From Candidatus Sericytochromatia bacterium (lineage in GTDB: Bacteria; Cyanobacteriota; Sericytochromatia; S15B-MN24; UBA4093): 64,000 nt of DNA. How positions within the stretch are numbered: the first letter of the stretch is position 1; each line of letters opens with the position of its first letter. Below are positions 37,301 through 62,632 of this stretch, piece after piece. The DNA lies in NCBI GenBank assembly GCA_036676455.1, contig JAKFCW010000101.1, forward strand, positions 5,211 through 69,210, read 5' to 3'. The position numbers and the translations under genes were made by a program. Under the pieces are notes generated by a model, which ran no database searches, had not been told where the DNA came from, and saw only the letters and a program-made list of their open reading frames with translations.

Positions 37301-37661
37301 GGCCGGGACCCGCGGGGACACGGGCACCGACTACGGCGGCCTGTTCCGCTACGAGCTCTCCGGGGCCTCTCCCAAGGAGCTCTACGTCCCGATCGGCAAG
37401 GGGCGGGTCTACTCTCTGGTCGTGGCTTCCGACCGCACGGTCTACGCCGGCTCCGGGGATCAGAAGATCTACCAGGTCGACCTGAACGGAGCCGTCACGC
37501 CCAAGTGGTCGCTAGGCACCCTCCCCTACGGCCTCGATCGCGATGGCGACACCCTCTGGGTGGTGGGAGAGAACAACCGCATCTTCTCGTTCGCGCGGAC
37601 CCTGTCCGAGGCGCTGACCCCGCCGTCCCAGACCTACGGCATCATGGAGCCCGTCTTCTGA
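34389..37661 (+). CDS. Giant lipoprotein, class B (B1): [15 protein letters not shown] + the same N-module + NHL-type beta-propeller repeats. 1090 aa.
   Basis: GTG at 34389 follows AGGAGGAGG, 10 nt after the A1 stop. The leader is [24 protein letters not shown]. Motifs are [60 protein letters not shown], an IPT segment ([22 protein letters not shown]...[17 protein letters not shown]), then DGHRS. Blades include [42 protein letters not shown] and [14 protein letters not shown]. It ends YGIMEPVF. Confidence 0.85.
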
Positions 37662-38032
37662 TGCGCATGCTCGTCACCCGCCTCGCCCTCGTCTCCCTCT
37701 GCCTGCTCCTCGGCTGCGCCGAGGATGACGGCTTGCTCGCGGGCCGCCCCTCCGCCCGGGCCTCGAGCCTCCCGGCTGACGGCTCGCCGACCCCCACCCC
37801 CACCCCGACCCCCACTTCGGACGCCACGGCGACGCCCACTCCGGCGCCGACACCGACTCCCACCCCGTCGCCTAGCCCCTCGCCCAGCCCGTCTGCCAGT
37901 CCGTCCCCCCCGCCGAGTCCCGCGGTGAATCCCACCCCGCCCGCGACTCCCGACCCGGAGCCCAGCGAGTTCCAGCCGGGCGAGGACGACGGGGGGATCG
38001 TCGGAGACGGCGACGTCGGCGGCGGGGCCTGA
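37661..38032 (+). CDS. Small Pro/Thr-rich lipoprotein (S1), 123 aa
   Basis: The ATG overlaps the B1 stop by 1 nt (TGATG). The leader is [38 protein letters not shown] / SPSPSPSP low-complexity region follows, then an acidic tail. Confidence 0.75.
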
Positions 38033-38192
38033 GCTCGTCGAAGCCCGCTCCCGAGGGACTCGCGTTCGCCGGAAGGACCTGCAATCAAGAAACTTCCGCT
38101 TTCAGCCTAAGAGGGCCCTAGTAGCCTGTCTGTTACCCCCTCGAACGTGTTGATGGCGCTGCGGAGTCTGGCGACCCCGGCGGGAGGAAATC

Positions 38193-38339
38193 ATGCGAGC
38201 CATCGCGTCATCGGGTCTCGCCGGCCGCGTCCTGAGGGGGGTGCTGGCGGCTTGCCTGCTGGCATTCGTGACGGCGTGTCCCCGCCCCCTGACCCTCGAC
38301 ACGACGCCCACCCCCGGTGAGGAGCTGCTGCCGTTCTAG
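38193..38339 (+). pseudogene. Orphan 48-codon ORF encoding only a class-A-type signal peptide and lipobox (possible gene remnant or leader peptide)
   Basis: ATG at 38193 follows GGGAGGA. It translates as MRAISSGLAGRVLRGVLAACLLAFVTAC-PRPLTLDTTPTPGEELLPF-stop. It is below the ORF-track size cutoff and was read directly from the sequence. Repeat family 2 copy c follows immediately. Confidence 0.5.
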
Positions 38340-38540: not shown

Positions 38541-41500
38541 ATGCGAACTTTCGCCTCAGCGATCACTTCACGGCGAACCTGGCGGATCGTTCTAACGGTC
38601 TGCCTGCTGGCACTGCTGACGGCGTGTCCTCGCCCCCTCGTTCCCCCCGCCTCGACTCCCGGCCTCGGTGCTGATCCCAGCCTCTCGGCCACCGAGCAGG
38701 TCCTGGGCCAGGTGGACTTCGGCGGCCAAACAGTGCAGGCCGATATCTCGGACGACATCGCCCCGGGCGCCACCGTCGCTCTGATCGACGTGCAGACCGG
38801 GCAGACCCTGAGCACCACCCGCACGGACGAGAACGGCCGCTTCGTGCTCGTGTACTCCAACGGCTTCAAGCCGGTATCGGGAGGGCTCTACTACTTCGAG
38901 GCCCTCAAGGGCCTGAAGGGTTCCAGCGGGCTTCCCAACGCCGTAGGCGCGGACGTGGTTCGGGTCCGGACCATCGCCAGCTATCGCAACGGCGGCTGGG
39001 TCACCCTCACCAGCCGGACTGTCACCACCTCGATCCTCATCAACCCCATGACCACGGCCCTGTCGGTCATCGTCAGCCTGCGGCAGGGCTCCGTCGCTCC
39101 TCTCGACGTCAGCACCCTCTTCGGCACGATCAAAGCGGGCCGTCCGGAGGGGAGCTATCCCGACACGCTGGACCTGCCGGATCCCTCGCTGGTACCGCTG
39201 GTCCAGAGCGCCTACGACCTGGTCATCGACGCCCTTGCCAAGGAACGGGACCCCGTCCGCTGGATCACGCTCGATAGCGAGAACCCCAACGTCGTCCGCT
39301 TGCCGGACATCCCCTTCTCGATCAAGTTCCCGGATCCCGGCGTCCAGGAGATCGGCAAGGAACTCGATCTGGTCGGGGTCAACTTCGCCCCGGAAGCCGC
39401 ACAGAACCTGGTCTCTTTCCGCACCGACGGCGGCTGGATCCCCGCCACGGTCGTCTCGGTCCTGCCTGACCTGACCCGCCTCAAGGTCATCGTCCCCGAC
39501 GGCGCGGTCAACGGTCCCATTCGCCTGCAGATCGGCGACAAGATCCTGGTCTCGGATTTCAACTTCCAGCTCGCCGTCGTCGACGGCCACAGCGTCGTGC
39601 GCCCCTTCGGAGGCATTTCCTACCTCTTCGTCGCCAATGCCAGCCTCGGCACCATCGCCTACGTCTCCCCTTCGGGCGAGGCCACTCCGCTGATCAAGAA
39701 CCTCTCGAGCCCGCAGGCGCTGACCTTTGGCCCGGATGGATTCCTCTACGTCGCATGTGGCGGCACCACGAAGCGCGTCGTCCGCTTCGACGTCACCCTC
39801 GACGGCAACGGCAACCTCGTGCCGGGCATCCCAACCGATTACTCCGGCTTGCTTTCCAATCCCTCGGGCATGGCCTTTGATCTCTCCGACCCCAACCCCG
39901 ATCCCAGTCAGCGGCTCTATCCGCTTTACGTCGCGGACCGTGGCCTCAACCAGTTGCACCGGGTGGAGTGGACGGCGAACCGCACCGCGGTCCAGCCCAC
40001 CGCGCTCTTCCCCGTGGCAGGGCTCAATGAGCCGCGCGGCCTCTCCTTCGGTGCCGATGGCCGCCTCTACGTGGCCAACGCCGGGGCCAACAACGTCCTC
40101 GCCGTGTCCAAGCTGAGCGGCGAGAGCGAACCCTACCTCTCGGGTCTCGGCAAACCCTGGTCCGTGGCCTTCGACAGCAAGGGCAACTTCTACGTCAGCA
40201 GCAACACCGGCAACTCCATCTTCCGGCGCGACGCCGTCTCGGGAGTCCTCTCGGCCTTCGCGAGCGTCCCCAGCCCCGGTGGCCTGGACGCCGACGCCTC
40301 GGGTTACATCTACTGCGGAGACAACGTCAGCAACCAGATCTACCTGGTCAACTCGCTGGGCGAGACGCGCATGGTCGCCACGGGCATCAGTTCTCCGATG
40401 GGCATCCACGTCGACGCGGACGGCCTCTTCGTGGTGACCGGCAGCGGCCAGTTGCTCAAGGTCACCCACGACACCGGCTCTCTCTCCGTGCTCGCGGATG
40501 GCCTCACGGGCGCGGGCGACCTGGGCCGCGACTCCGCGGGCAACTTCTACGTCTTCCAGAAGAGCCTCGGTCGCATCTCCCGGATCACCCCCGCGGGGAT
40601 CATCAGCGTCTTCCTCAACGTCACGAACACCTCCGACATCTACGTCAAGGGCAACAAGCTCTACCTCAAGAAGACCAACACCCTACGCCCTGACGGCAAC
40701 TGGTCCGGCATGGGAGGAGTCGAGGTCCGGGATCTCTCCGACCGGGAAGTCGTGCAGGACTTGAAGGTCAGCTACATGCGCGATGCTATCGGCATGGCCT
40801 TCGATACCACTCCGGCCGGCGCCTACCGCGATTGGCTCTACGTGGCCAACCTCGACGATCGCTCGGTCGTGAGGCTCAAGCCGGAAGGCGACGGAGACCT
40901 CAAGCGGCACAAGGTCCATCGCTTCCTCGACCGCGTCAACGCCCCCGAGCTGGATCGGCCATGGGACGTCTGGGTGGATCCGGCCAGCGGCAACGTCTGG
41001 GTCTCGGATCAGGGCACGTCCACCGCCGATGATGGCCTTTACGTCTACAACTCAGCCGGTACCCGGATCGCGGACTATTCGGGCATCGTCGATCGCCCGC
41101 TGAAGTTCGGTTACGACGGCTCGCGCCTCTACCTCGCGAACTACGGAGGCCACGAGGTCATCCGGATCGACCCGACCAGCGGGGCCGAACTGGGGGCGAT
41201 CGCCGTCCCCTACCCCCGCTCGATCGCCTTCGACACGGCCAGCAACCGCATGTTCATCGGGACCTGGGACGGCTCGAGCGGCAGCCGCCCGATCAAGAAG
41301 GTCGACGCTTACGCCACCGCGCCGGTGATGGCGGACTACTACGACCTGCTGGCCTACGACCTGGTCTTCGAGAACGGCAACCTCTACACCGCCGCCGGCT
41401 CCTCCTACAAGATCTCCGCCGACCTGACCCGCCACGATCGCTTCATGTCCTCGCGATCCACCCTCTACGACTTCGCGCGCCGCGCCGACGGCAAGATCTA

Positions 41501-42035
41501 CCACATCACCCGCGACGGCCGCCTGGGCCGCTGGACCACGGACTGGGACGGGGAGATCGCCGCCATGATCGAGTACGCGGGAGGCGGCCCCGTGGTGGTG
41601 GATGGCCTCGGGAACTGGATCTCGGCCTTCATGACGGGCTGCTCGGCCAAGGACATCCTGCTGGGCCGGCTCGACGACTCCGACCCCGCCAGCTTCCAGA
41701 TCACGCCGATCCGCTTCGGAACGGACGACTGCTGGGTGCCGGAGGCCAACATGGCCAGCGACGGAGGCGACCTGGTCTTCATCACGGCCAACCCCAAGGC
41801 GGAGCTGGTCCGCTTCAACACCACGACCTACGCCTTCCATCGCCTCGGCAAGCGTTTCGGCATGACGGATCGCAGCCACGGCGTCAGCGTCTACAACGGC
41901 AAGGTCTACCAGACCATCATGACCCGCCACCAGATCGACGTCTACGACGCCAACGGAGCGTCCGGAGGGGAAGGGTCCAACCCGCCGGCATACCTCGAGA
42001 CCCTGCCCGTCGGGCTGGTCGCACCGGAGCTTTAG
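38541..42035 (+). CDS. Giant lipoprotein, class A (A2). About 1164 aa.
   Basis: ATG at 38541 follows GGGAGGG. The leader is MRTFASAITSRRTWRIVLTVCLLALLTAC-PRPLVPP. It has the same module order as A1 (GATVALIDVQTGQTLSTTRTDENGRFVL, LYYFEALKGL, VRVRTIASY, ERDPVRW, IPT, DGHSVV, NHL-like blades such as LYVANAGANNVLAV, FYVSSNTGNSIFRR and IYCGDNVSNQIYLVN). It ends VGLVAPEL. Confidence 0.85.
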   Translation: MRTFASAITSRRTWRIVLTVCLLALLTACPRPLVPPASTPGLGADPSLSATEQVLGQVDFGGQTVQADISDDIAPGATVALIDVQTGQTLSTTRTDENGRFVLVYSNGFKPVSGGLYYFEALKGLKGSSGLPNAVGADVVRVRTIASYRNGGWVTLTSRTVTTSILINPMTTALSVIVSLRQGSVAPLDVSTLFGTIKAGRPEGSYPDTLDLPDPSLVPLVQSAYDLVIDALAKERDPVRWITLDSENPNVVRLPDIPFSIKFPDPGVQEIGKELDLVGVNFAPEAAQNLVSFRTDGGWIPATVVSVLPDLTRLKVIVPDGAVNGPIRLQIGDKILVSDFNFQLAVVDGHSVVRPFGGISYLFVANASLGTIAYVSPSGEATPLIKNLSSPQALTFGPDGFLYVACGGTTKRVVRFDVTLDGNGNLVPGIPTDYSGLLSNPSGMAFDLSDPNPDPSQRLYPLYVADRGLNQLHRVEWTANRTAVQPTALFPVAGLNEPRGLSFGADGRLYVANAGANNVLAVSKLSGESEPYLSGLGKPWSVAFDSKGNFYVSSNTGNSIFRRDAVSGVLSAFASVPSPGGLDADASGYIYCGDNVSNQIYLVNSLGETRMVATGISSPMGIHVDADGLFVVTGSGQLLKVTHDTGSLSVLADGLTGAGDLGRDSAGNFYVFQKSLGRISRITPAGIISVFLNVTNTSDIYVKGNKLYLKKTNTLRPDGNWSGMGGVEVRDLSDREVVQDLKVSYMRDAIGMAFDTTPAGAYRDWLYVANLDDRSVVRLKPEGDGDLKRHKVHRFLDRVNAPELDRPWDVWVDPASGNVWVSDQGTSTADDGLYVYNSAGTRIADYSGIVDRPLKFGYDGSRLYLANYGGHEVIRIDPTSGAELGAIAVPYPRSIAFDTASNRMFIGTWDGSSGSRPIKKVDAYATAPVMADYYDLLAYDLVFENGNLYTAAGSSYKISADLTRHDRFMSSRSTLYDFARRADGKIYHITRDGRLGRWTTDWDGEIAAMIEYAGGGPVVVDGLGNWISAFMTGCSAKDILLGRLDDSDPASFQITPIRFGTDDCWVPEANMASDGGDLVFITANPKAELVRFNTTTYAFHRLGKRFGMTDRSHGVSVYNGKVYQTIMTRHQIDVYDANGASGGEGSNPPAYLETLPVGLVAPEL

Positions 42036-42044
42036 GAGGCCGCC

Positions 42045-45000
42045 ATGAAGAAGCTGATCGGATGGAGCCTCCTGCTGGCCGTACTCGTCACGGGCTGCCG
42101 CCTGCCGTCGCTGCTGCCGCAGACGCCGACGGGCTCGCCCCAAGCCCTCGCCTCCGCCCATGTCCTCCAGGGCCGCCTGGAACCCCCCAGCCGCCTGCAG
42201 GCGGAGTCCGAAGAGGACCGCAAGCTCCGCGAGATCGCCGAGGCCGCCACCGTCACCTTGATCGACGGCGTCACGGGCCACACCGGCGCAACCACCGTCA
42301 GCAACCCGGACGGCACCTTCGTCATGCGCTTCCAGGACGGCTTCGCGCCCATCGAGGGCCGTCCCTACTTCCTGGAAGCCATCAAGGGCATCAAGGGCCG
42401 TGGCCCGAACACGACCCCCAACGACCTCTTCAACCAGGCCGGTGCCGATGCCGTCCGCCTGCGCACCATCCTTTACTACCAGGATTCGCCCTCGGGCTGG
42501 ATCAGCCCGTCCAACGCCTCGCCCGCCGGCATCACCATCAGCCGGCAGACGACGGCCCTGGCGCTCGCGCTCTTCCTGAAGCAGCACACCATTCCCATCA
42601 ATTACGCGGACTTCATCGGCTGCCTGGCGACCGAGACCTACCAGCCGGTGGCCGGCCTCACGGCGCCTGAGTTCGACAGCGCCTTGCTGATCGTCAAGGA
42701 AGCGATCCTCCAGGACCGCGACCCCATCCAGTTCCTGGCCTACGATTCCAGCTCGCAGTCCTTCATGAACCTCTACAACGGTCACTCGATCGACACCCTG
42801 GTCCCGAGCAGCGGAGGCATCGGCGAGGAGGTCACGATCATCGGCGACGGCTTCGACCTTCCCGGCGAGCTCACCGTGAAGTTCAACGGGGTCGAGGCCT
42901 TCCTGACCGCGCCTCCCACCAAGGACCGCCTCAAGGTGAAGGTCCCCCTCGGCGCTCGCTCGGGCCCGGTTTCCGTCCGCATCGGCACGGTCACCCAGGG
43001 CGGCGGCGAGTTCCGGGTCGACTCCTTCGACGGTCACCGCGCCATGCTCGACGGAGTGCTTTACGTCGCCAACTACGACCGCTCCAAGATCGTCAAGGTC
43101 TTCAGCGACACGATCGACGGAGCGCGCGTCGACGGCATCGTCGAGGACGTCGCCGACGTCCCGGCGGGTCCCACCCAGCTCGCCCTCTACACCACGGAGG
43201 CGGATCCCTCGGTGAAGCGGCTCTTCGTGGCCTGCCGCACCGCCGGGAAGATCGTCACGCTCGACCTGAGCGCCCCCGCCCCGCTCGCCACCGACTTCGT
43301 CGCCTTCTCCGAGCCCACCGCCATGGCCTTCATGGGCAACGTCCTGTACGTGGCCAGCAACACGGGCAAGATCTCGCGCTTCAACCTCGACGGGTCCTCC
43401 GCGGGGCCCGACCTCACCGGCCTCACCGCCCCGACGGCCCTGGCGTTCGACTATGCCGGCAACCTCTTCGTGGCCCTGGACGGGGCCGAGGACCGGATCA
43501 AGCGCATCGAGTTCAACCCGGACGCCTCGATCAAGGCCATGCAGGACTGGGCCTACCTCACCGATCCCAGGGGCCTCGCCATCGACTCGGGCGGCGCCCT
43601 CTACGTGGCCAGCTACACGGACGCTCTGGTCTACCGGATCCTGCCCAGCCTCGCCATGTCGGTCTTCGCGCGGGTCCCCGCTCCCGCGGGCGTCATGCTC
43701 GACGAGGAGGGCTTCCTCTACGTCGCCTCCGACACGCAGCACCAGATCTACCGCGTCTCCACGCTGGGCGACATCAAACCCTACGCCTTCGGCATCAGCC
43801 ACCCGCGCGGGGTCGCCGTGGACGGCAACGGCACGCTCTACGTCTCTTTGAGCGAATCGAACGCCATCCTGAAGGTGGAGGACCGCGGAGCCGCCGGCTA
43901 CCGCACCCGGCCCTTTGTCACCGGCATCGCCAACCCGCACTCCATCACCTGGCGCAATGATCGCCTCTACATCGCCCACCGCGAGGCGGGCGTCATCTCC
44001 TCGGCGGACGCCTTCGGCAGCATGCGCACCGAGGCGACGGGCTTGACCATCCCCGGCGGCGTGGACCTGGGGCCCGACGGCACCCTCTACGCGGGGCGCT
44101 ACGGTGCGAGCGGGCATGCGGCGACCGTCCCCCCCAACGTTCCCTGGCACCAGCGCGGAGACGACGGAGGCATCGAGATCGTCGGGCCCGACGGCCTGGT
44201 CACGGTCAAGCGGCGGATCCTCAGGACCAGTGATCGCGCGATCACCGGCCTCAACGACGGGACCCGCTTCGCCATCAACACGGGCACGGACCAGCTCGTC
44301 ATGTACCAGGCCACCAACGGCCACAACTCGAGCTACCGCTACCGCACGATCCGGCAGTTCGGCGCCAACCCCTTCGCCCTCGAACGCGACGCCACCGGCG
44401 CCAACCTCTTCGTCGTCACCGAGAACACCCCGAGCGTCTATCGCTTCACCGGCGCCGGAGCCGCCTGGACCGAGACCGTCATCGCGATTCCCGGTGTCAC
44501 CGACCCCGAGGCCCTGACCTACGATGCCGATAACGACCGGCTCTACGTCCTGCATGGCACCACCACGATCAAGCGCGTCCTGAACGCCACGCAGCCCACG
44601 GCCGCGCTCGACGGCGCCTGGTCGGCCACGGTCTCCAGCGTCTACGACCTCGCCTACCGCGCGGGCACGCTCTTCCTGGCCCGTAGCACCAAGGACGTGC
44701 AGCAGATCGACCTCACGGCCCCGACGCCCACGCCTACCCTCTACGTGGACGGCTTCGGCGAGACCCCGCGCAACATCGTGGCCCATCCGACCAACGGCGA
44801 GCTTTACGTACGCTCCAGCAACAACCAGTATGCCTACCGGGTGACCGCCACCAAGGTCCTCCAGCTCGACGCCGACTACACCGGTTGGGGGCGCCTCACG
44901 GCCTACGGCATCGCGCCGGACGGCAACCGCATGCGCTCGGAAAGCACCTTCCCGAACTACTACTTCCAGGGCAAGACCACGATCTCGAGCCTGATCCAGA

Positions 45001-45422
45001 GCCACGAGGTGGCCTTCCACGACAACCGCGTCTTCGTCGGCTCGTACATGGGAGGCGGCTACACCGGGGTCTACGCCTACAACCTCGCCGACGGCACCGA
45101 GATGTTCATCCGCGGCACCTTCGACTCCGGCGACGATGCCACCGGAGCCGGAGTGCTCGCCGTGAACCCGGAGGCCAACCAGCTCTACGTGGGAACGGCC
45201 AAAGGCAAGATCTTCAACGTGGATGTCGCCGCCGGGGCCACCGAGGGACAGGTCTCGTCCTTCGCGACGCTCAAGAGCGGGGAATGGCTCTACGGCCTCG
45301 ACATCACCAGCACCCGGGACAAGCTCTGGGCGGTGGGTGGATCTCGTAGCCTCTTCTCGCTCCGTCTGAGCGACAAGGTGGTCACCGAGGTCAAGCCCGG
45401 CCTTTCCCAGCCGAGATTCTAG
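42045..45422 (+). CDS. Giant lipoprotein, class B (B2). 1125 aa.
   Basis: ATG follows AGGAGG, 9 nt after the A2 stop. The leader is MKKLIGWSLLLAVLVTGC-RLPSLLP. Motifs are ATVTLIDGVTGHTGATTVSNPDGTFVM, PYFLEAIKGI, NQAGADAVRLRTIL, QDRDPIQF, IPT, DGHRA. The propeller core includes FGISHPRGVAVDGNGTLYVSLSESNAILKV and [16 protein letters not shown]. It ends KPGLSQPRF. Confidence 0.85.
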   Translation: MKKLIGWSLLLAVLVTGCRLPSLLPQTPTGSPQALASAHVLQGRLEPPSRLQAESEEDRKLREIAEAATVTLIDGVTGHTGATTVSNPDGTFVMRFQDGFAPIEGRPYFLEAIKGIKGRGPNTTPNDLFNQAGADAVRLRTILYYQDSPSGWISPSNASPAGITISRQTTALALALFLKQHTIPINYADFIGCLATETYQPVAGLTAPEFDSALLIVKEAILQDRDPIQFLAYDSSSQSFMNLYNGHSIDTLVPSSGGIGEEVTIIGDGFDLPGELTVKFNGVEAFLTAPPTKDRLKVKVPLGARSGPVSVRIGTVTQGGGEFRVDSFDGHRAMLDGVLYVANYDRSKIVKVFSDTIDGARVDGIVEDVADVPAGPTQLALYTTEADPSVKRLFVACRTAGKIVTLDLSAPAPLATDFVAFSEPTAMAFMGNVLYVASNTGKISRFNLDGSSAGPDLTGLTAPTALAFDYAGNLFVALDGAEDRIKRIEFNPDASIKAMQDWAYLTDPRGLAIDSGGALYVASYTDALVYRILPSLAMSVFARVPAPAGVMLDEEGFLYVASDTQHQIYRVSTLGDIKPYAFGISHPRGVAVDGNGTLYVSLSESNAILKVEDRGAAGYRTRPFVTGIANPHSITWRNDRLYIAHREAGVISSADAFGSMRTEATGLTIPGGVDLGPDGTLYAGRYGASGHAATVPPNVPWHQRGDDGGIEIVGPDGLVTVKRRILRTSDRAITGLNDGTRFAINTGTDQLVMYQATNGHNSSYRYRTIRQFGANPFALERDATGANLFVVTENTPSVYRFTGAGAAWTETVIAIPGVTDPEALTYDADNDRLYVLHGTTTIKRVLNATQPTAALDGAWSATVSSVYDLAYRAGTLFLARSTKDVQQIDLTAPTPTPTLYVDGFGETPRNIVAHPTNGELYVRSSNNQYAYRVTATKVLQLDADYTGWGRLTAYGIAPDGNRMRSESTFPNYYFQGKTTISSLIQSHEVAFHDNRVFVGSYMGGGYTGVYAYNLADGTEMFIRGTFDSGDDATGAGVLAVNPEANQLYVGTAKGKIFNVDVAAGATEGQVSSFATLKSGEWLYGLDITSTRDKLWAVGGSRSLFSLRLSDKVVTEVKPGLSQPRF

Positions 45423-45430
45423 GAGGACCC

Positions 45431-45760: not shown

Positions 45761-45782
45761 GGTCACGATGAAAGAGGAAACC

Positions 45783-47537: not shown

Positions 47538-47661
47538 ACCGCCTGCATACCCGCCATTGGCCAAAATGCACCTCTGACGGGCTGACGGGGGCTTCTCGCA
47601 CGAAAGCTTGAATGAAGAATTGGTGAGCCCTGGCGAGGTGGTGCAGATCTGCTGCAATTCT

Positions 47662-47670
47662 GGGTAAAAC
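47662..47670 (+). promoter_or_regulatory. Putative -10 element (GGGTAAAAC)
   Basis: About 70 nt upstream of the A1' ATG at 47739. Confidence 0.2.
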
Positions 47671-51284: not shown

Positions 51285-51296
51285 AGGAGAACGCCG

Positions 51297-54200: not shown

Positions 54201-54710
54201 GGCTGGAGCCGCTTCCGTGGCTTCACCTTCGATCCGTCGTTCAATACGTCCACTAACCGCAACACCGGCTACTACGCGATCGAAGATCAGTACTCCGGAT
54301 TATCGACCTTCCGCTCGCAGACGACGACCCGCGAGGTGCAGCTCAAGCCCGATCCCGATCCCCTCAAGTCCGGCGTCCTCTACGTCGCCTCGCCGGATAG
54401 TGAGGGTGCCGGCGGCATCCTGCGCATCGATCTCGACACCCAGGAGGAGCTGATGATTCCCCTGCGGACCTACTCGATCGGCCTGTACGGCGCCGACCTC
54501 TACGCGGGAGCCTCCGACAACTGGATTTACCACGTCGACGCGGCCGGCAAGCATACCTCGAAGTGGAATCTCTCGACCCTCCCGTACGGGCTCGACATCT
54601 ACGGGGACACCGTCTGGGCGGTGGGAGCGAACTCGCTGGTCTTCGAGCGCCCCATCGGGGCGGGAGTGGCCAAGGATCACAAGTTCGGCATGATGGGACC
54701 GGTGTTTTAG
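51297..54710 (+). CDS. Giant lipoprotein, class B (B1', closest to B1). 1137 aa.
   Basis: The leader is MKRLTTLVLLAFLLTSC-RLPSLLP. The core [66 protein letters not shown] parallels B1. It ends FGMMGPVF. Confidence 0.85.
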   Translation: MKRLTTLVLLAFLLTSCRLPSLLPTSMTSGDGAGGTAARQTVVLKGRIEEPRSVMATPADIANGATIALIDAESGLTLGTSLSDPLGNFFLSFGDGTNLVDGRAYYLDVMKGVRLDANQPDSPFNQAGADTLRLRNILFYQEASMAGSAGWKSLMNGTAGNVVNVGNRSTTMSIALALKRQAGETVVLSDFAGALEADIENDPAWTMGGLTQPVYTTLKSIVLEAIANDRDPIQYAVYDEGSKTFMNPWIGFSIASVTPAEGPINQVITISGEGFDLGDPTVAVNGREAQVLTRTAQVITAKVMPGSRTGPVSVKIGTTLQAGNTFKVNFHDGHSALYDRTVLGQPVRMLYVANPAWNTIVEVSPDGAITKVWDDTTIPELKTPRQVAVWNGKLYVSCDPSGTANDKILQLDPTNPAAKVVYSTAVQHPYGLAFDLDGFLHVSSYQSAGSVVKLDAAGAVVAQYAGLASPRGLAFDYLGNLFVAEEGGRVVKLTAPAMTAETWGLLPSPLGLAVDSAGDLFVASNTNDVIYRISSLRAMSVFAMLNKPGGLTIDERGYLYVSDTSQNLVRRISPSGDAKIYAYGISNPRGLAVDPTNGTLFISLNKSNAILKVENGALKPFVTGIANPMTITFRGKGLLIAHPETHTISYAERDGKISTLATGLEYPGGADQAADGAGNLTGPLYAARFGDMESPFSARLPRYDSYEVSNGSHNGVDVIGGASPGLRRWLYRQQLNYIAVDAAKNIYAIHSGDRTLTKIAAEPGGGNASRKVTRIAGPRSPYTFGGNPGWVSVDANSNIYVVVPSEHLIYRFKPTGGTYAMDTITGFNSPWGIAFSDTTPQAMFVSNTADGKIRRVLDAVNDAAAQPTTTFEIPASTGVRGLAYMASGVAGTGTLYMANGTSIMMAGISGNAYTAASYATYFSGLPGSCSYLYAKPLTGEVFAWANATFAYVVPPDLPLVPYVFKDYTGWSRFRGFTFDPSFNTSTNRNTGYYAIEDQYSGLSTFRSQTTTREVQLKPDPDPLKSGVLYVASPDSEGAGGILRIDLDTQEELMIPLRTYSIGLYGADLYAGASDNWIYHVDAAGKHTSKWNLSTLPYGLDIYGDTVWAVGANSLVFERPIGAGVAKDHKFGMMGPVF

Positions 54711-55040
54711 ATGATGACGCGCAAACCTCAGTTCGTGATGTTGGGACTCGTGGCCTTGAGCCTCCTGATCGGCTGTGCGGCCGACGAGGATGGCTTGACC
54801 GGGGTGAGCGGCTCCGGGCGTCGCACCGCCTCGCCCAGCCCCCAGGTCACGGCCACGCCGACTCCCACTCCGAGCGCGGGCTCGGCGACGCCGACCCCGA
54901 AGCCTACCCTGACGCCGTGGCCCAGCCCGACGCCCACCCCCACGCCTTCGCTGGCTCCCCTGCCGGATCCGGTCGGAGGCCCCTCCACCGGCGACCTTGA
55001 ACCGCCACCCGACTCCACCGAGTCCATCGGGGTCGAGTGA
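54711..55040 (+). CDS. Small Pro/Thr-rich lipoprotein (S3), 109 aa
   Basis: The ATG directly abuts the B1' stop (TAGATG). The leader is MMTRKPQFVMLGLVALSLLIGC-AADEDGLTGV, followed by a PTPTP-rich region. Confidence 0.75.
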   Translation: MMTRKPQFVMLGLVALSLLIGCAADEDGLTGVSGSGRRTASPSPQVTATPTPTPSAGSATPTPKPTLTPWPSPTPTPTPSLAPLPDPVGGPSTGDLEPPPDSTESIGVE

Positions 55041-55077
55041 CGCGCATGCGTCGAGTTCCGTCCAGAAAGAGGTTCGC

Positions 55078-55269
55078 ATGAAATCCCTGTTTCCCATCCT
55101 CGGTCTGATCCTGGCGACCGCCATGGCCTTCGGGGCCGGGTGCGCGGACGATGGCGCACTCTTTGGCGTGGGGGGCAGCGGAGGCAAGAAAGCGTCCGCC
55201 GCTCCCCAGGCGAGCCCGGCCCCATCGGCCAGCCCGTCGGGCACCGGAGGCTCGATCGTCAACGATTGA
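55078..55269 (+). CDS. Very small lipoprotein (S'3), 63 aa
   Basis: AAAGAGG RBS. It translates as MKSLFPILGLILATAMAFGAGC-ADDGALFGVGGSGGKKASAAPQASPAPSASPSGTGGSIVND. Confidence 0.65.
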   Translation: MKSLFPILGLILATAMAFGAGCADDGALFGVGGSGGKKASAAPQASPAPSASPSGTGGSIVND

Positions 55270-55297
55270 GTTTGGGCTCCCCGCTCACGATCAACGC

Positions 55298-55345
55298 GCG
55301 AAGCAGCCCCCGCCGCCGGCGGGAAGGGCTGCTTCGCTCCTTTTG
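55298..55345 (+). terminator. Rho-independent terminator
   Basis: A 12-bp stem gcgaagcagccc / gggctgcttcgc is followed by tcctttt. Confidence 0.7.
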
Positions 55346-55366
55346 GTGCGTATTTCGGTGGTTTCC

Positions 55367-55375
55367 GGGTAAGAG
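55367..55375 (+). promoter_or_regulatory. Putative -10 element (GGGTAAGAG)
   Basis: About 60 nt upstream of the A2' start. Confidence 0.25.
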
Positions 55376-55436
55376 AACCTCGATTACTCGCTTGCTCTCG
55401 AAGGGCCCTCGCGCGTCCCGGTGGAAAGGAGCTCGA

Positions 55437-58400
55437 TTGCTCGCAAGTGCACATGCTCGACGCTCGAGCCTCGCCATCGTCTACGTGCTGCTGGCCGCGC
55501 TGGTTGCGCTGCTGACGGCCTGTCCCCGTCCGCTGCTCGCTCCGACCGGAGCCGGGGGCGCGCAGGGCATGGCCCTGGATCCGGAGGCGGCCGTTTCCGG
55601 GCACGTGGATTTCGGCGCCCGAAAGACGCAAGCCACCATCAAGGACGACGTCGCCCCCGGGGCCACCGTCTCGCTCATCGAGGTCACCTCCGGCCAAACC
55701 CTCGCGACCACCTTCTCTCAGCCGGATGGTCGCTTCGTGCTACAGTTCTCGAATGGCTTCAAGCCCGTCTCCGGGGGGCTCTACTACTTCGAGGCCGTCA
55801 AGGGCCTCTCGGGGCCGACCGGCCAGCCCAACGCCGTGGGGGCGGATGCCGTCCGGGTCCGGACGATCGCGAGCTATCGGAGGGGCGGTTGGGTGACCCT
55901 CAGCACGAAAGGCGTCACCACCAGCATCTCGCTCTCCCCGATGACCACCGCCCTCTCGGTCGTCGTCAGTCTGCGCACCGGCACCGCCAAGAGCATCGAT
56001 CCCACCACGCTTTTCGGAGCGGTCCGGGCGGGCCAGGGTGAGGGCAGTTATCCCGATGCCCTCACCCTTCCGGACCCGACCCTCGTCCCACCCTCCATGG
56101 TCTACGAGGCGTACGATCTGGTGGTCGACGCGCTGGCCAAGGAGCGGGATCCGATCCGCTGGATCACCCTGGATAGCGCTGATTTGACGTCCTTGAGCTT
56201 GCCGACGATTCCCTTCTCGATCAAGTACCTCGTGCCGTCGATGCAGGAGGTCGGCCAGAAGCTGGACCTCGTGGGCGTCAACTTCGCCCAGAACCCGGCC
56301 GATAACAAGGTCTCCTTCACGACGGACGGCGGCTGGGTCCCGGTCACCGAGATCGGCCCCGTCTCGGCGGACCTGACGCGCCTGACCGTCACGGTGCCGA
56401 ACGGGGCCATCAGCGGCCCGGTTCGCCTCGAAATCGGCGGCAAGATGCTCTCCACGGACCCGGACAAGTCCTTCAGCCTCGCCGTCATCGACGGTCATAG
56501 CGTCGTACGGGTCCTGGACCGAAAAGCCTATCTCTTCGTGGCGAATCCGGCGAAGGGCACGATTTCCAAGGTCACCCCCGAGGGCGAGGTGGTTCCTTTC
56601 CTCTCGGGCTTGACGAGCCCTCAGGCCCTGACCTTCGGGCCGGATGGCTGCCTTTACGTCGCCTGCGGAGGGGCCAAGAACCAGATCGTGCGCATCACGC
56701 TCACGGCGGCCCTGACGGCTGCGAGCAGCGACGTCCGGGATTACTCGACCCCCCTCGTCAATCCGACGGGTCTGGCCTTCGACATGACCCAGGTCTCGAC
56801 GCAGGCCACGGTCGCCAGCGCTCCGTTGTACGCAGTGACGGGCGACGGCCAGCTTTATCGCTTGCCGTGGACCGGAGCGCTCGAGAACGTGGTGCCGGTC
56901 CTGGTTCCGCTCCAGGGGGCCAGCTTGAGCGGCCCCCGGGGGATCTCCTTCGGTTACAAGGACGACGACTGGCGCTTGTGGATTCCCAACGCGATCGCCA
57001 ACAACGTCGTGATCGTCGATCCGGCCACCGGTCAAGCCACCGTCGAGCTTTCCGGCATCGGGAAACCCTCCGGCGTCGCCTTCGACAGCAAAGGCAACCT
57101 CTACATCTCCAGCAACACCGGTAACTCCATCTTCAGAAGGGAAGCCGGCCAGAGCGAGCTGAAGCCCTTCTCGAGCGTACCCACTCCCGCGGGCCTGGAT
57201 GCCGACGCCTCGGGCTACATCTACTGCGCCGACAACGTCAGCAACCGCATCTACATGGTCAACTCCCAGGGTGAGAGCCGCATGCTCGCCACCGGCATCA
57301 GCTACCCGCTGGGGGTTCACGCCGACGCCGACGGCATCTTCGTCGTCACCGAGATCGGCCAGATCCTGAGAATCTCGCACGGCAGCGGCGTGGTCTCGCT
57401 CTTTGCCGACGGCCTCTCGAATCCCATGAGCCTGGGACGCGACGCGGACGGCAACTTCTACGTGCATCAGCCCGCCCTGAAGCAGATCACCCGCCTGGCC
57501 ACGGTCACGGATGCCTCCGGCCGACTCACCGGCATGATCGACTCCTACCTCCCCGTCTCCAACGTCCGCGACATCCACGTCGCGGGCCGCAAGCTCTATC
57601 TCCAGAAGACCCTCATCAAGAATCCCCAGGGCGAGGACGAGGGCCGAGGCGGCGTCGAGATCCGGGATCTCTCCGACTGGGGAACCACGGAGTCCCTCTA
57701 CACGGGCTTCATCCGGGACGGCGTCGGCATGAGCTTCGACAACTCCACGGGGCCCTTCCAGGGCGCCCTCTACCTCGCGAACTTCACCGACAACTCGATC
57801 GTGCGCATGGACGCAGACGCGGCCAACCCCCCGCGAGGCAAGATCCGGCCCTTTCTCAACGGCACCCAGAACCCCAAGCTGGTGCGCCCGAACGACGTCT
57901 GGGTTGACCCTGCCAACGGCAACGTCTGGGTTTCCATTCAAGGCATCAACACGGATACGGATGGCTTGATCGTCCTCGACTCGGCCGGCGTCGAGCTCAA
58001 GGACTACTCGACGCTGGTCAATCGTCCGCGCAAGCTCGGCTTCGACGAGACCCACCTCTACCTCACCAACGAGGGCGGAAACGAGGTCATCCGGATCGAC
58101 CGCACCACGGGCGCCAAGCTCGCCTCGTACGCGGTGCCCAAGCCGCTTTCGCTTGCCTTCGATACGGCCACCGACACCATGTACGTGGGCTCCAACGATG
58201 GCCAGATCTACCGGATCACCGGGTACCGCACCGCGACGCCCGCTGCGGCCGCTCCCTTCCATGCGCTCCATGCCTACGATCTGTATTTCCACACCGATAA
58301 CTACCTTTACGCGGCGAACTCCTCGACCTGGAAGATCGAGAAGGACGGGTCCACCCGCTTCGTCTACCGCCGGCATTACGGGCAGATCTACGACTTCGCG

Positions 58401-58937
58401 AAGCGCGCCTCGGACGGCAAGATCTTCCACCTCACGCGAGATGGCCGCTTCGATGCCTGGACCAACAACTATGTCACCTCCTCGGGGACCATGTTCACGG
58501 GAGGCAGCTCGGCCGTTCCGGACGGCAAGGGCAACTGGGTCTCGGTCTTCGAGACGATCTGCGGAGGCAAGAGCCTCATCGTCGGCGACCTGGCCGGCAC
58601 GTTCCAGCAGTATGCGGGCAGCCGGATCGGCATGACGCAGTGCTGGGTCACGGTCGGGTCGATGACCAGCGATGGCGACGGGAAGGTCTTCGTGGTGAGC
58701 AATCCGCAAGGTCGCCTGCATCGTTACGACGTGGCGACGGGAGTGCTCGAGCACCTGCCCAAAACCGGCGGAGCCTACAACGACGGGGACCAGGGGCTCG
58801 GCGTCGCGGCCTACAACGACAAGGTCTACGTGACGATGCGCAACCGGCACGTGGTCGACGTCTTCAACGCCGATGCGGCGGCGGACGGCGCCTTCATCGA
58901 GACGTTGAACGTCGGCCTGGTCAACCCCGAGCTTTGA
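55437..58937 (+). CDS. Giant lipoprotein, class A (A2', closest to A2). About 1166 aa.
   Basis: TTG at 55437 lies 5 nt after AAAGGAG. The leader is LLASAHARRSSLAIVYVLLAALVALLTAC-PRPLLAP. The track ORF start at 55140 would span the terminator hairpin. Motifs match A2 (LYYFEAVKGL, ERDPIRWITLDS, LAVIDGHSVVR, TSPQALTFGPDGCLYVACGG, IYCADNVSNRIYMVN). It ends VGLVNPEL. Confidence 0.8.
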   Translation: MLASAHARRSSLAIVYVLLAALVALLTACPRPLLAPTGAGGAQGMALDPEAAVSGHVDFGARKTQATIKDDVAPGATVSLIEVTSGQTLATTFSQPDGRFVLQFSNGFKPVSGGLYYFEAVKGLSGPTGQPNAVGADAVRVRTIASYRRGGWVTLSTKGVTTSISLSPMTTALSVVVSLRTGTAKSIDPTTLFGAVRAGQGEGSYPDALTLPDPTLVPPSMVYEAYDLVVDALAKERDPIRWITLDSADLTSLSLPTIPFSIKYLVPSMQEVGQKLDLVGVNFAQNPADNKVSFTTDGGWVPVTEIGPVSADLTRLTVTVPNGAISGPVRLEIGGKMLSTDPDKSFSLAVIDGHSVVRVLDRKAYLFVANPAKGTISKVTPEGEVVPFLSGLTSPQALTFGPDGCLYVACGGAKNQIVRITLTAALTAASSDVRDYSTPLVNPTGLAFDMTQVSTQATVASAPLYAVTGDGQLYRLPWTGALENVVPVLVPLQGASLSGPRGISFGYKDDDWRLWIPNAIANNVVIVDPATGQATVELSGIGKPSGVAFDSKGNLYISSNTGNSIFRREAGQSELKPFSSVPTPAGLDADASGYIYCADNVSNRIYMVNSQGESRMLATGISYPLGVHADADGIFVVTEIGQILRISHGSGVVSLFADGLSNPMSLGRDADGNFYVHQPALKQITRLATVTDASGRLTGMIDSYLPVSNVRDIHVAGRKLYLQKTLIKNPQGEDEGRGGVEIRDLSDWGTTESLYTGFIRDGVGMSFDNSTGPFQGALYLANFTDNSIVRMDADAANPPRGKIRPFLNGTQNPKLVRPNDVWVDPANGNVWVSIQGINTDTDGLIVLDSAGVELKDYSTLVNRPRKLGFDETHLYLTNEGGNEVIRIDRTTGAKLASYAVPKPLSLAFDTATDTMYVGSNDGQIYRITGYRTATPAAAAPFHALHAYDLYFHTDNYLYAANSSTWKIEKDGSTRFVYRRHYGQIYDFAKRASDGKIFHLTRDGRFDAWTNNYVTSSGTMFTGGSSAVPDGKGNWVSVFETICGGKSLIVGDLAGTFQQYAGSRIGMTQCWVTVGSMTSDGDGKVFVVSNPQGRLHRYDVATGVLEHLPKTGGAYNDGDQGLGVAAYNDKVYVTMRNRHVVDVFNADAAADGAFIETLNVGLVNPEL

Positions 58938-58941
58938 GGAG

Positions 58942-61900
58942 ATGACCATGCCCTTCATGCGCGTTTTGAACTTGCTCTTGGTCGTGCTGCTCGCGGGGTG
59001 CCGCCTGCCGTCGCTACTGCCGCATGCCGCTACCCCGCTTGACGGAACCTCCGCCGCCATGCCGGCGCATGTGCTGCAAGGGCGAATCGTGTCGCCGCCT
59101 CAGGTGCAGGCTTCCCTGACCGACATCGCCTCGTTCGCGAGCATCGCCCTGATCGACTCCGAGACGGGCTACACGGCCGCGACGACCGTCAGCGGCGCGA
59201 ACGGCACCTTTACCCTGAGGTTCGAGGCCGGCTTTTCGCCGGTCGATGGCCGTGCCTACTACCTCGATGCCATCAAGGGCATCAAGGAGACCGGGCCCGC
59301 CACCGACCCCAACCCCCTCTTCAATCAGGCGGGCGCTGATGCCGTGCGGCTGCGCACGGTCCTCTTTCATCAAAGCATGCCCGAAGGCTGGGTGAGCCTC
59401 AAGAACGCCGCGCCAGGCGCGATCTACATCAGCCGGGGCACCACGGCGATCGCCATGGCGGTCTTCCTCAAGCAGCAGTCCCAGGCCATCGCCTGGAGTT
59501 CCCTCATCGGGGCCCTGCACGTGGAGACCGACGCCTATACCGAGGTCCCGGCTTCACTGACCTCCACCGAGTTCCAGGATGCCTACGCCATCGTGGACGA
59601 GGCGATCACCCAGCATCGCGACCCGCTTCAGTTCCTCGCCTTCGACTCGGCCGTCGGCTTCGTCAACCTTTACAACGGCCACTCGGTCGATTCCCTGGAG
59701 CCCGATCACGGCGCGATCAACCAGCAGATCGTGATCAAGGGGGACGGCTTCCTGACCCCCGGCGACGTGACGGTCACCTTCAACACGACCGAGACGGTCC
59801 CCCCGACGGGAGCCAACCGCACCAAGGACAGGCTCGTGGTGACGGTTCCCCCGGGAGCCCGAACCGGGCCGGTGCTCGTCAAGATCGGCACGGTGACCCA
59901 GGCCGGCCCGGCTTTCACGGTGGATTCCTACGACGGGCATCGCGCCAAGCTGGGCGACACCCTTTACGTCGCGAACTTCGACCGCGCCAAGATCGTCAAG
60001 GTCTCGCCGGACGGCGTGGTCGAGGATTTCGCCGACGTGCCGGCCGGTCCCACGCAGCTTGCGATCTACACGGACGACTCCGATCCCCTTCAGCCGATCG
60101 AGCGCTTGTTCGTTGCCTGTGAGACCGCCGACCAGATCGTGACCCTCGACCTGCGCGAGCCCGCTCCGATCGCCCAACCCTTCGTGAACCTCACCAAGCC
60201 TGCAGGCCTGGCCTTCCTCGGAAACGTCCTCTACGTCTCCAGCAAGTCCCTCAAGACCGTCTCGCGCTTCAACCTCGACAAGTCCTCGGCAGGGGACGCG
60301 CTCACGGGCTTCGAGGCTCCAGCAGCCCTGGCGTTCGACTTCGAGAGCCAGCTCTTCGTCGCGGACGGCAACAAGGTCCTCCGGGTCAACCTGACGACGG
60401 GAACGTCGCTGGTCTGGATCTACCTCTCCAGCCCCCGGGGCCTGAGCGTCGATTCCGGCGGCACGCTCTACGTGGCCAACTACGACGACGGCGTGATTTA
60501 CCGGATCCTCGTCATCCCGCCCACCAACCGCCGGGCGGCCTACGTCTTCGCCCGCGTCCCCAATCCCACCGGCATCATGCTGGATGCCGCCGGGTACATG
60601 TTCGCCGCCTCGGAGACGCAGCATCAGATCTCGCGGATCTCTCCGCTGGGCGACATGAAGCCCTACGCCTACGGCATCGCGAACCCCCGCGGCCTGGCCG
60701 TGGATGGCGCCGGGAACCTCTACGTCTCCCTCAGCCAGTCGAACGCCGTCTTGAAGGTGGAGCAGAACGGATCCTATCGAACCCGGCCCTTCGTCACGGG
60801 GATCCCCAACCCGCATTCCATCACGTGGCGCAACGACAAGCTCTACCTCGCCCACCGGGATGCCGGCGTGGTCTCCTCGGCGACCGCCGCGGGGAGCATG
60901 AAGACGGAGGCCGTGGGGTTCACCATGCCCGGCGGCGCGGACGTGGCGGCCGACGGCACGATCTTCGCGGGGCGCTACGGCGCGAGCTGGCACCTGGAGG
61001 TCTGGCCGCCCGATCCCACCCATGTCCACTACAACCGGGGTGGCCTGGAGTCCTACGCCAACGGAGTGATTTCCCTCGACCGCGGCTTCGTCAGGACCAG
61101 CCTCAAGGGCCTGGTGGGCCTGGACGACGGCACACGCTACGTCCTGACCTCCCAGAACACCTTGCTGGAACTCAAGGCCACCAACGGGCCGTCGTCATCC
61201 TACCGGTATCGCCAGCTGGATGCCTACGCCCAGACCCCGCTCCGGATCGAGCGGGATGGAGCGGGCAACCATCTCTACGTGCTCCTGGAGGGCTCGAAGG
61301 ATGTCCTCCGTTACGAGAAACTAGGCGACTCCTGGGTCAAGTCCGTGCTCGACCTCGATCCCGCGCTCGACAAGACGGGTTTCACCAATCCGACGCGGAT
61401 GACCTTCGATGCGGCCGGTGACCGCCTCTATGTGCTCGATGGCGGAGTGCTGAAGCGCGTCGAGGGCGCCACGACCGCGACTCCGGCGCTTTCCACGAAG
61501 GCGCCCGGAGAGCTTTGGTCGGTCTCCTTGACCGGAGCGAACAGTATTTCCTACAAGAACTCCCGGATTTACGTGACCTATGGCAACACCTGGATTCGCT
61601 CTCTCGATTCGACCCTGGCTTCCCCGACCGTCTCGGACTACGCCCAGGGACCGGTCAACCTGACCGGGGTCATCGCCCATCCCGTGAGCGACTATCTTTT
61701 CGCTTACCAGGGTGAAGACGGCTACAAGGTCCCGCCCAGCGGGGTCTTCGAGTACCTCACCGGATACGGCGGCACGGCCTTCGCCTACACGCCGGACGGC
61801 ACCTTCATGCGGGACTACGTCAGTTACATGCCGCTTTATTTCGGCAAGACCACGCTGCCGGGCTTGGTCCAGACCCACGAAGTGGCGGTCGACGGTGACC

Positions 61901-62271
61901 GGGTCTACGTCGGAAGCTCGATGAACGATGAGTACACCGGGGTCTATCGCTTCGATCGCGATACCGGCGAGCAATGGCTCATCCGGGGTCTGGGATCCTC
62001 GGGGGCCAGCGCCATCGCCGTCGGGCCTGACCGGACGCTCTACGTGGGTGGGGGCAACGGCAAAATTTACCAGGTGGACGGCAACGGCGCGGCCTCGGCA
62101 GCCTGGGTGACGACTCCCGCCATTCCAAGCGATCGCCTCTACGGCCTTGACATCACGGCCAACGGCACCAAGCTCTGGGCGATCGGCAGTTCGCGCACCA
62201 TCTACGGCATCACGGTGGCCGGCAAGACCGTCGAGCTGGTCAAGCCGGGCCTCTCGTCGCCACGCTTCTAG
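58942..62271 (+). CDS. Giant lipoprotein, class B (B2', closest to B2). 1109 aa.
   Basis: The leader is MTMPFMRVLNLLLVVLLAGC-RLPSLLP. Motifs match B2 (AYYLDAIKGI, NQAGADAVRLRTVL, QHRDPLQF, VDSYDGHRAKLGDTLYVANFDRAKIVKV, YGIANPRGLAVDGAGNLYVSLSQSNAVLKV). It ends KPGLSSPRF. Confidence 0.85.
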   Translation: MTMPFMRVLNLLLVVLLAGCRLPSLLPHAATPLDGTSAAMPAHVLQGRIVSPPQVQASLTDIASFASIALIDSETGYTAATTVSGANGTFTLRFEAGFSPVDGRAYYLDAIKGIKETGPATDPNPLFNQAGADAVRLRTVLFHQSMPEGWVSLKNAAPGAIYISRGTTAIAMAVFLKQQSQAIAWSSLIGALHVETDAYTEVPASLTSTEFQDAYAIVDEAITQHRDPLQFLAFDSAVGFVNLYNGHSVDSLEPDHGAINQQIVIKGDGFLTPGDVTVTFNTTETVPPTGANRTKDRLVVTVPPGARTGPVLVKIGTVTQAGPAFTVDSYDGHRAKLGDTLYVANFDRAKIVKVSPDGVVEDFADVPAGPTQLAIYTDDSDPLQPIERLFVACETADQIVTLDLREPAPIAQPFVNLTKPAGLAFLGNVLYVSSKSLKTVSRFNLDKSSAGDALTGFEAPAALAFDFESQLFVADGNKVLRVNLTTGTSLVWIYLSSPRGLSVDSGGTLYVANYDDGVIYRILVIPPTNRRAAYVFARVPNPTGIMLDAAGYMFAASETQHQISRISPLGDMKPYAYGIANPRGLAVDGAGNLYVSLSQSNAVLKVEQNGSYRTRPFVTGIPNPHSITWRNDKLYLAHRDAGVVSSATAAGSMKTEAVGFTMPGGADVAADGTIFAGRYGASWHLEVWPPDPTHVHYNRGGLESYANGVISLDRGFVRTSLKGLVGLDDGTRYVLTSQNTLLELKATNGPSSSYRYRQLDAYAQTPLRIERDGAGNHLYVLLEGSKDVLRYEKLGDSWVKSVLDLDPALDKTGFTNPTRMTFDAAGDRLYVLDGGVLKRVEGATTATPALSTKAPGELWSVSLTGANSISYKNSRIYVTYGNTWIRSLDSTLASPTVSDYAQGPVNLTGVIAHPVSDYLFAYQGEDGYKVPPSGVFEYLTGYGGTAFAYTPDGTFMRDYVSYMPLYFGKTTLPGLVQTHEVAVDGDRVYVGSSMNDEYTGVYRFDRDTGEQWLIRGLGSSGASAIAVGPDRTLYVGGGNGKIYQVDGNGAASAAWVTTPAIPSDRLYGLDITANGTKLWAIGSSRTIYGITVAGKTVELVKPGLSSPRF

Positions 62272-62284
62272 CACGGGGGATCCC

Positions 62285-62632
62285 ATGAGACGAGACCTGT
62301 TGCCGACCCTTTTCATTGCCCTTGCGCTCGCCCTGGCGGCCGGCTGCGCCGGCGAGGACGACCTGCTCGGCGGAGCGGGAGCACGGAAGCCGGCTTCCGG
62401 CACGGCCGTGGAGGGTGCGGCGAGCGATACCGGGGCGGGATCGCAAACTCAGACCCCCACCCCCACCCCCACGCCGACTCCCTCGCCCACCGCGACCCCG
62501 ACGCCCGTGCCGACGCCGACGGAATATGCGACCATGCAGCCGCCGCCGGTCAACGATGAACCGGAGGGCCCCGAAGCGAGCCCGCCGCCGATCGATCAGA
62601 CCGAGCCGATCGAGGATGAGAATACCGTCTAG
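62285..62632 (+). CDS. Small Pro/Thr-rich lipoprotein (S4), 115 aa
   Basis: The leader is MRRDLLPTLFIALALALAAGC-AGEDDLLGG, followed by [22 protein letters not shown] and an acidic tail. Confidence 0.75.
   Translation: MRRDLLPTLFIALALALAAGCAGEDDLLGGAGARKPASGTAVEGAASDTGAGSQTQTPTPTPTPTPSPTATPTPVPTPTEYATMQPPPVNDEPEGPEASPPPIDQTEPIEDENTV

Follow-up and report, generated by a model that had tools for sequence, protein, structure and literature searches.

LptM (YifL) of the Enterobacteriaceae is a domain-less lipoprotein of ~6 kDa which acts by binding LptD/E (PMC10567701). Considered here are two series of small lipoprotein genes, S and S', as found in Candidatus Sericytochromatia bacterium within a 64,000-nucleotide stretch of DNA (GenBank assembly GCA_036676455.1, contig JAKFCW010000101.1, positions 5,211 to 69,210), which we describe as the window. 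The window contains four co-directional pairs of genes for lipoproteins of ~1100 amino acids (aa), A and B, with each pair followed by one or two small S-type open reading frames (ORFs), i.e., S or S plus S', and with each such grouping described here as a cassette. As with LptM, the S and S' products are very small and non-globular, possessing a conserved motif right after the lipid-bearing cysteine along with a short tail, and S' (mature length 41-42 aa) falls within the same size class, with both of its ends conserved. The motif of S nonetheless is acidic, C-A-E-E-D, versus C-G-L-K-G-P in LptM, while S proper is twice as long, is PT-rich, and is found in another phylum. The LptM profile (PF13627, LPAM_2) did not match any S or S' at E ≤ 5, nor was there an NCBIfam match near the cut-off. 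By analogy of form, LptM would appear to be the closest functional analogue of S and S'. Pilotins, it may be added, act for secretins as LptM does for LptD/E.

A second point of comparison is the lipoprotein export signal (LES) of Bacteroidota, that is, C-X-K-(D/E)2, Q-A-(D/E)2, or S-D-D-D-D at positions +2 to +6, as borne by many surface lipoproteins (PMC5080379). S too has two to four acidic residues within +2 to +6. It has A or G at +2, however, whereas an LES must open with a polar or positive residue (K, Q, or S), and Sericytochromatia are unrelated to Bacteroidota. Nor is the acidic cluster common to a large class of lipoproteins, as at least three D/E at +2 to +7 are seen in not one of 237 further lipoprotein candidates, with the cluster instead confined to nine paralogous genes sharing the S leader. 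It therefore is not a general sorting code.

LpoA and LpoB of E. coli combine a lipid anchor with a long disordered linker, such that their far end can contact a partner on the other side of the periplasm. S could extend to ~27-33 nm at most, which would be of the same order, though it terminates in a short acidic peptide where LpoA and LpoB have folded domains. Beta-propellers, for their part, can in general bind short linear peptides, although we know of no ligand for the PknD sensor. PknD-type NHL propellers (PDB 1rwi, and the derived 'Pizza' designs) are relatives of A and B rather than of S. Trypanosome procyclins, lastly, are lipid-anchored (via glycosylphosphatidylinositol), acidic, Pro-rich, and non-globular, and may serve as a functional analogue should S form a coat. 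Homology of S with procyclins was rejected, since the match to PF05887 (Trypan_PARP) reaches 16-18 bits versus a 100-bit cut-off and reflects composition only.

S and S' as Lipoprotein Genes

S and S' are, with high confidence, real lipoprotein genes. All six of the window's S and S' ORFs possess a positive n-region, a hydrophobic core, and a lipobox ending in G-C (with LLLG, AIG, LIG, AAG, or GAG preceding the cysteine), followed by A-(E/D/G)-(E/D)-(D/G), and the genome encodes the corresponding modification enzymes, LspA (PF01252, 127 bits) and Lgt (PF01790, 292 bits). The ORFs also are closely coupled to the genes preceding them, with which they would be co-translated, S as the third and S' as the fourth gene of a cassette. 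That is, after all four pairs an S gene is found within ~15 nucleotides (nt) of the stop codon of the second propeller gene, with starts ranging from a 1-nt overlap to 14 nt beyond the B stop: the ATG of S1 has one base in common with the TGA of B1, that of S3 abuts the TAG of B3, and S2 starts 8 nt past the B2 stop, with AGGAGG 5 nt upstream. Purine-rich sequences resembling Shine-Dalgarno (SD) sites are found 5-8 nt upstream of S2, S4, S'2, and S'3. For S'2 there is an alternative ATG at 45768, the start chosen by gene callers, which would yield 67 aa.

The G+C content of third codon positions (GC3) peaks in the proposed frame of each of the six ORFs, at 0.75-0.89, in a region with a local G+C content of 65-69%. 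Antisense ORFs with Gly/Val-rich 'GVGVG' products shadow S genes (Table 1). GC3 was ruled out as a strand discriminator, because the antisense shadow frame uses the wobble column of S as well; the strand is picked out instead by leader, SD sites, and conservation.

A hidden Markov model (HMM) of the leader has exactly nine matches in the 4.0-Mb assembly, every one of them beside genes of the A/B family. These are the six window ORFs, two further genes designated S5 and S6, and a 364-aa lipoprotein. S5 is located beyond the window, starting 54 nt downstream of a fifth pair of genes. S6 is found on another contig, 52 nt upstream of its pair, so S does not occupy a fixed place with respect to A and B; a convergent gene lies directly after B in that cassette. 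The sequence-only reading of this DNA, which proposed the six window ORFs with coordinates and lengths that hold up here, had also suggested that the 364-aa protein combines an S leader and PT linker with a single propeller, making S resemble a 'headless' version of it. Both suggestions are borne out, the first by the leader HMM and an NHL match, and the second in that S5 and the 364-aa protein share not just the leader but also the motif SNLGG(G/N)I. Relatives likewise carry 'headed' proteins with an S leader, for which Ig-like matches are weak and sub-threshold.

The arrangement is syntenic in related genomes, as sampled using GTDB relatives, where those with S come from two of the order's families. 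In nine of these genomes (G001, G008, G003, G004, G007, G009, G016, G020, and G014) a small lipoprotein gene rich in Pro/Thr is found no more than 14 nt past the B stop, including after both of the two pairs in G001, both of the two in G008, and three A-B pairs in G003. G003 has a further S lodged between two C-type genes, counting which an S follows or flanks all four of its pairs. No S gene was found after the pair in G026, a 64%-complete genome and the sole exception among relatives with pairs examined, while in G002 there was neither a full-length B match nor, using the leader HMM, an S leader. The S genes of G020 and G014, along with one of those of G008 (G008:C31), were found by manual scan. 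A filter combining GC3 with Pro+Thr+Ser content was discarded, as it missed these same genes, G+C content being high at codon positions 1 and 2 in P/T/A-rich genes. On a 72-kb contig from a related species, available from the Joint Genome Institute (JGI), genes run B-S-S', then three pseudopilin genes on the minus strand, then A-B-S-S', which matches the window, with each S and S' called by the gene caller. The co-occurrence with A-B homologs that the sequence-only reading had put forward as a check on these ORFs is, that is, what is seen.

Its supposition that such genes are routinely missed by annotation has not fared as well: S3, S4, S'2, S'3, and S6 are already called genes in a public protein collection, and gene callers picked up all S and S' on related contigs as well. 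Relatives in public sets are labelled 'hypothetical protein [compost metagenome]'.

S and S' are, in addition, under purifying selection. As computed against near-identical contigs from other metagenomes, the ratio of nonsynonymous to synonymous substitution rates (dN/dS) is 0.12 for S3, 0.36 for S4, and 0.39 for S'3 versus 0.16 for B4. Identities to a more distant, related species (contig L038) are 64% for A3, 60% for B3, 55% for S3, 76% for S'3, 81% for S2, and 93% for S'2.

Disorder and Family Membership

S proteins have no folded domain, as the sequence-only reading had claimed. Mature S products are 88-113 aa in length in 14 of 15 cases, with the one other being 142 aa, and consist of 43-56% Pro+Thr+Ser with a net charge of -6 to -14. 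In a charge-hydropathy plot S1 to S5 fall on the disordered side, S3 marginally so. AlphaFold2 modelling of S3, using a small alignment, gave solely a signal helix (residues 6-21), with neither helix nor strand beyond it and a predicted template modelling score (pTM) of 0.18. S'2 and S'3 instead fall on the folded side of the plot, though at 41-42 residues they are very short.

The PT strings of S are encoded by imperfect hexanucleotide repeats of an ACCCCC type (37790-37905 in S1 and 62453-62521 in S4). Close contigs differ in the length of these strings by a PT unit or two, i.e., 96 versus 98 aa (L039/L040) and 115 versus 113 aa (S4 versus L014).

No Pfam or NCBIfam family came near threshold for S or S'. 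Sub-threshold, low-complexity matches to Trypan_PARP, an SslE linker, and a Lysis_col signal peptide were discarded. S'2 and S'3 are paralogs, as previously supposed, at 56% identity. A profile search with S' of 1.84 billion representatives returned 10 further 50%-identity clusters, all of 59-67 aa, whose N-terminal portion has C-A-E-(D/E) plus a Gly/Lys-rich stretch and whose C-terminal portion has SG.GG(I/V/L). S' is a family of its own, one conserved at both ends. A match of the same profile in Candidatus Elarobacter was rejected as a shadow-frame artefact inside another gene. S and S' are confined to a single order within Sericytochromatia, and they are new in detail rather than in kind.

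Motifs, Tails, and Cassette Specificity

The acidic cluster following the cysteine is the most widely conserved feature of S, recurring across genera as C-AEED, C-PEE, C-PGEGDD, and C-AEEAP. Toward the other end, the sequence-only reading had pointed to a weak [LI]-E-P-P-P / S-P-P-P-I-D motif. PPP, though, is found in 14 of 23 sequences versus 12.7 in shuffles, which is to say that composition alone explains it. Two other motifs stand out, though as they were defined only after inspection of the sequences the shuffle figures are indicative only: GG[INV] is present in 13 of the 23 versus 1.7 in shuffles, and is found at the conserved C-terminus of every S', while [ST][LM][AR]P[LIV] is present in seven versus 0.04. 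The latter, [ST]LAP-type motif recurs as PTLAP(I/L)ETP in the other of the order's two sampled families (f4).

These motifs are unevenly distributed between S and S'. In all four cases of an S found beside an S' (in the window's genus and in G008) GG[IV] is absent from the S, and no S bearing GG[IV] has an adjacent S'. In other genera one longer S holds both motifs. Though the numbers are small, this suggests that a two-motif S may have been split by gene fission into S plus S'.

Among orthologs it is the PT linker that turns over, with the non-repetitive C-terminal ~45 residues retained. Between S2 and its counterpart on L038, 48 of the final 50 residues are identical, with the linker much more diverged, and the S4 tail is unchanged in L014. 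Tails also are cassette-specific, that is, alignments of orthologous tails have z-scores of 10-27 versus 5-6 for the clearest paralog pair, S2-S4. The B2-B4 and A2-A4 pairs are similarly the closest paralogs among B and A proteins, at 53% and 55% identity, respectively. The S1 and S6 tails align with a z-score of ~6, and A6 is the closest paralog of A1 (49.5%); B1-B6, at 42.8%, is not clearly closer than B1-B3, at 42.9%. Similarity among S tails therefore tracks A/B paralogy, which means that the A-B-S cassette has both duplicated and diverged as a unit, with S co-diverging with its neighbours.

What Might S and S' Do?

The most economical reading is that S serves as a lipid-anchored, flexible adaptor for its cognate A and/or B protein, to which we assign a probability of roughly 45%. 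Signal peptidase II cleavage would give rise to a mature S beginning with a lipidated cysteine and acidic cluster (C-A-E-E-D-G-L), followed by a net-negative Pro/Thr/Ser string of ~90-110 residues (~40 in S') and then the short motifs, i.e., GG[IV], [ST]LAP[LI]xxP, and a cassette-specific acidic C-terminus. The lipid and acidic N-terminus would fix one end of the protein, the PT string would supply a reach of up to ~27-33 nm, and the C-terminal motifs would bind A and/or B, the propeller lipoproteins of the same cassette, with the three or four lipoproteins thereby forming one module. The conserved, cassette-specific tails speak for specific binding and against a passive spacer.

Various observations nevertheless weigh against such an adaptor. 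S6 is found upstream rather than downstream of its pair, S4 and S6 along with some relatives are without both motifs, the post hoc definition of those motifs means that the shuffle tests overstate their significance, and at genus-level divergence (G001) S tails are hardly alignable. In addition, when B3 and S3 are modelled by AlphaFold2 as a read-through fusion (the two being in one frame, with TAG read as Gln), the S3 part has a predicted local distance difference test score (pLDDT) of 22-30, with no docking or S-propeller contact predicted, though this is a weak negative, as the S part was without alignment rows and the output lists no contacts.

A bolder version, which we view as doubtful, would have fully disordered S be an obligate, cassette-specific subunit of an envelope module made up of three or four lipoproteins. 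Here the acidic cluster would send S to another membrane or leaflet than A and B, the ~30-nm string would span the gap, and the C-terminal peptide would plug into the cognate propeller, with an ancestral, two-motif S having been split into S (with the tail motif) and S' (with GG[IV]) on separate anchors.

S proteins might instead be passive, i.e., lipid-anchored and probably O-glycosylated acidic Pro/Thr brushes which set spacing or shield the surface around A and B without specific binding, as in the mucin-like coat suggested by the sequence-only reading. The Pro+Thr+Ser content and negative charge of S are consistent with this, as too are its narrow range of mature lengths despite sequence turnover and the strain-to-strain variation in PT linker length. 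We consider it unlikely, however, as the best-conserved part of S is not the PT string but the non-repetitive C-terminal tail, for which a pure spacer would have no need, and one tail type per cassette is retained across species, which implies a specific partner. As to glycosylation, the sequence-only reading had proposed a search for O-glycosyltransferase genes, and glycosyltransferases of the GT-C type (PMT/PMT_2-like) indeed are present in the genome; the matches are unspecific, however, as the same families match E. coli and other control genomes.

Improbable too, and somewhat more so, is that S and S' are assembly or sorting factors, acting via their lipid and post-cysteine acidic motif to aid the localization or maturation of A and B, or marking a dedicated export route. 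The breadth of conservation of the acidic cluster and its uniqueness to the S family both would fit, and S' retains even the signal peptide along with C-AE(D/E)xxLFG. There also are precedents, since acidic residues after the cysteine constitute the Bacteroidota surface-export signal (PMC5080379) and LptM works through a conserved post-cysteine motif (PMC10567701). Neither PF13627 nor any other family matches, however, the signal is found on just nine proteins while A and B themselves are without it, and both the conserved, cassette-specific tails and the ~100-residue length would be left unexplained.

That the S genes are instead decaying remnants, truncated leftovers of 'headed' lipoproteins which are translated but functionless, is already disfavoured and strikes us as very unlikely. 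The leader and SNLGGxI that S5 shares with the 364-aa protein, the existence of headed relatives, and the rapid divergence of S tails between genera all might be expected of remnants, but dN/dS values are well under 1, frames are intact across two families, S identities are comparable to those of neighbouring folded proteins, and tight coupling to B is kept everywhere. Weakest is the idea that the ORFs are not genes at all, i.e., frames that happen to be open in GC-rich spacer DNA, or that shadow antisense ORFs there, for although each S is covered by a long minus-strand ORF with a common wobble column, only the plus strand bears the signal peptide, the lipobox, and the SD sites, the leader HMM matches nine loci only in 4 Mb, the reading frame is kept in many genomes, and S products are present in the public protein collection whereas a search of it for the antisense products found none, making this explanation exceedingly improbable.

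The Surrounding Cassettes

The coordinates of S, S', and neighbouring features are collected in Table 1. A proteins across genera have C-P-R-P-L following from the cysteine and a C-terminus of VGL(V/x)xPEL, and those in the window have a lipobox ending in TAC and a C-terminus of VAPEL. B proteins, also across genera, have C-(R/K)-(L/M)-P-S-(L/I) following from the cysteine and end in G(L/M)xxPxF, with an aromatic final residue, where the window's B type has C-(R/K)LPSL near the N-terminus and P(V/R)F at the C-terminus. The two genes of the fifth pair are similar to each other and both have a C-PRPL lipobox, with endings (WFHYGTF and WLNYGSF) that are not those of A or B.

In A3 as in B3 the central propellers match PknD-type NHL six-bladed propellers, with E = 1e-14 to 1e-31. 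B3 is modelled by AlphaFold2 as an all-beta, multi-propeller body (mean pLDDT 82.7, pTM 0.71, and block pLDDT mostly >85), and a Foldseek search with the B3-S3 fusion model returned generic tandem propellers only, e.g., LRP2 and LRP6. The probable TTG start of A4 is preceded by GGAAAGGAG and follows S'3 after a 168-nt gap, whereas the 1265-aa A4 ORF as listed opens at a GTG overlapping S'3 (region 55140-55437).

Between cassettes 2 and 3 there is a three-gene pseudopilin operon whose position is kept in a related species (L038 897-2396; L016 855-2285). Its proteins are 37-39% identical in that species versus 60-93% for the flanking A3, B3, and S'2, and they are fast-evolving minor pseudopilins.

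Table 1. Locations of S and S' genes and of the features that surround them, in window numbering unless otherwise indicated.
Feature	Position	Strand	Description
S1	37661-38032	+	123-aa prolipoprotein, mature 105 aa; C-AEDDGLL then PT/SP string
S2	45431-45760	+	109-aa prolipoprotein, mature 91 aa; AGGAGG SD
S'2	45783-45971	+	62-aa prolipoprotein, mature 41 aa; C-terminus SGSGFSGGIK
S3	54711-55040	+	109-aa prolipoprotein, mature 88 aa; SLAPL motif, acidic tail
S'3	55078-55269	+	63-aa prolipoprotein, mature 42 aa; C-terminus SGTGGSIVND
S4	62285-62632	+	115-aa prolipoprotein, mature 95 aa
S5	~69348-69749 (contig C101 74558-74959)		after fifth pair, beyond window; SNLGGGI motif
S6	contig C114, cassette 8601-15709		order S-A-B; S6 upstream of pair
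364-aa 'headed' lipoprotein	26871-27965	-	S-type leader, SNLGGNI, PT linker, one NHL propeller (residues 95-362)
Cassette 1	30851-37661	+	A1 30851-34378, B1 34389-37661; NHL propellers
Cassette 2	38541-45422	+	A2 38541 (probable ATG)-42035, B2 42045-45422
Cassette 3	47739-54710	+	A3 47739-51284, B3 51297-54710
Cassette 4	55437-62271	+	A4 55437 (probable TTG)-58937, B4 58942-62271
Fifth pair, first gene (start only)	62761-64000	+	runs beyond window end
Pseudopilin operon	46062-47690	-	three genes
Antisense ORFs shadowing S genes	37642-38088, 45461-45967, 54728-55225	-	148-168 aa

Implications

Small, domain-less lipoproteins usually are dismissed as annotation noise, yet of the few that have been studied, e.g., LptM, these have proved to be real subunits of envelope machines. 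The S series overturns nothing that is known. It is, however, conserved, is under selection comparable to that of its large, folded neighbours, and co-duplicates with them. To our knowledge the cell envelope of Sericytochromatia is essentially unstudied, and for these organisms the S series supplies a testable prediction of protein-protein contacts. The S cassettes, that is, would represent a natural set of cognate and non-cognate combinations of tail and propeller with which motif specificity in disordered lipoproteins may be explored.

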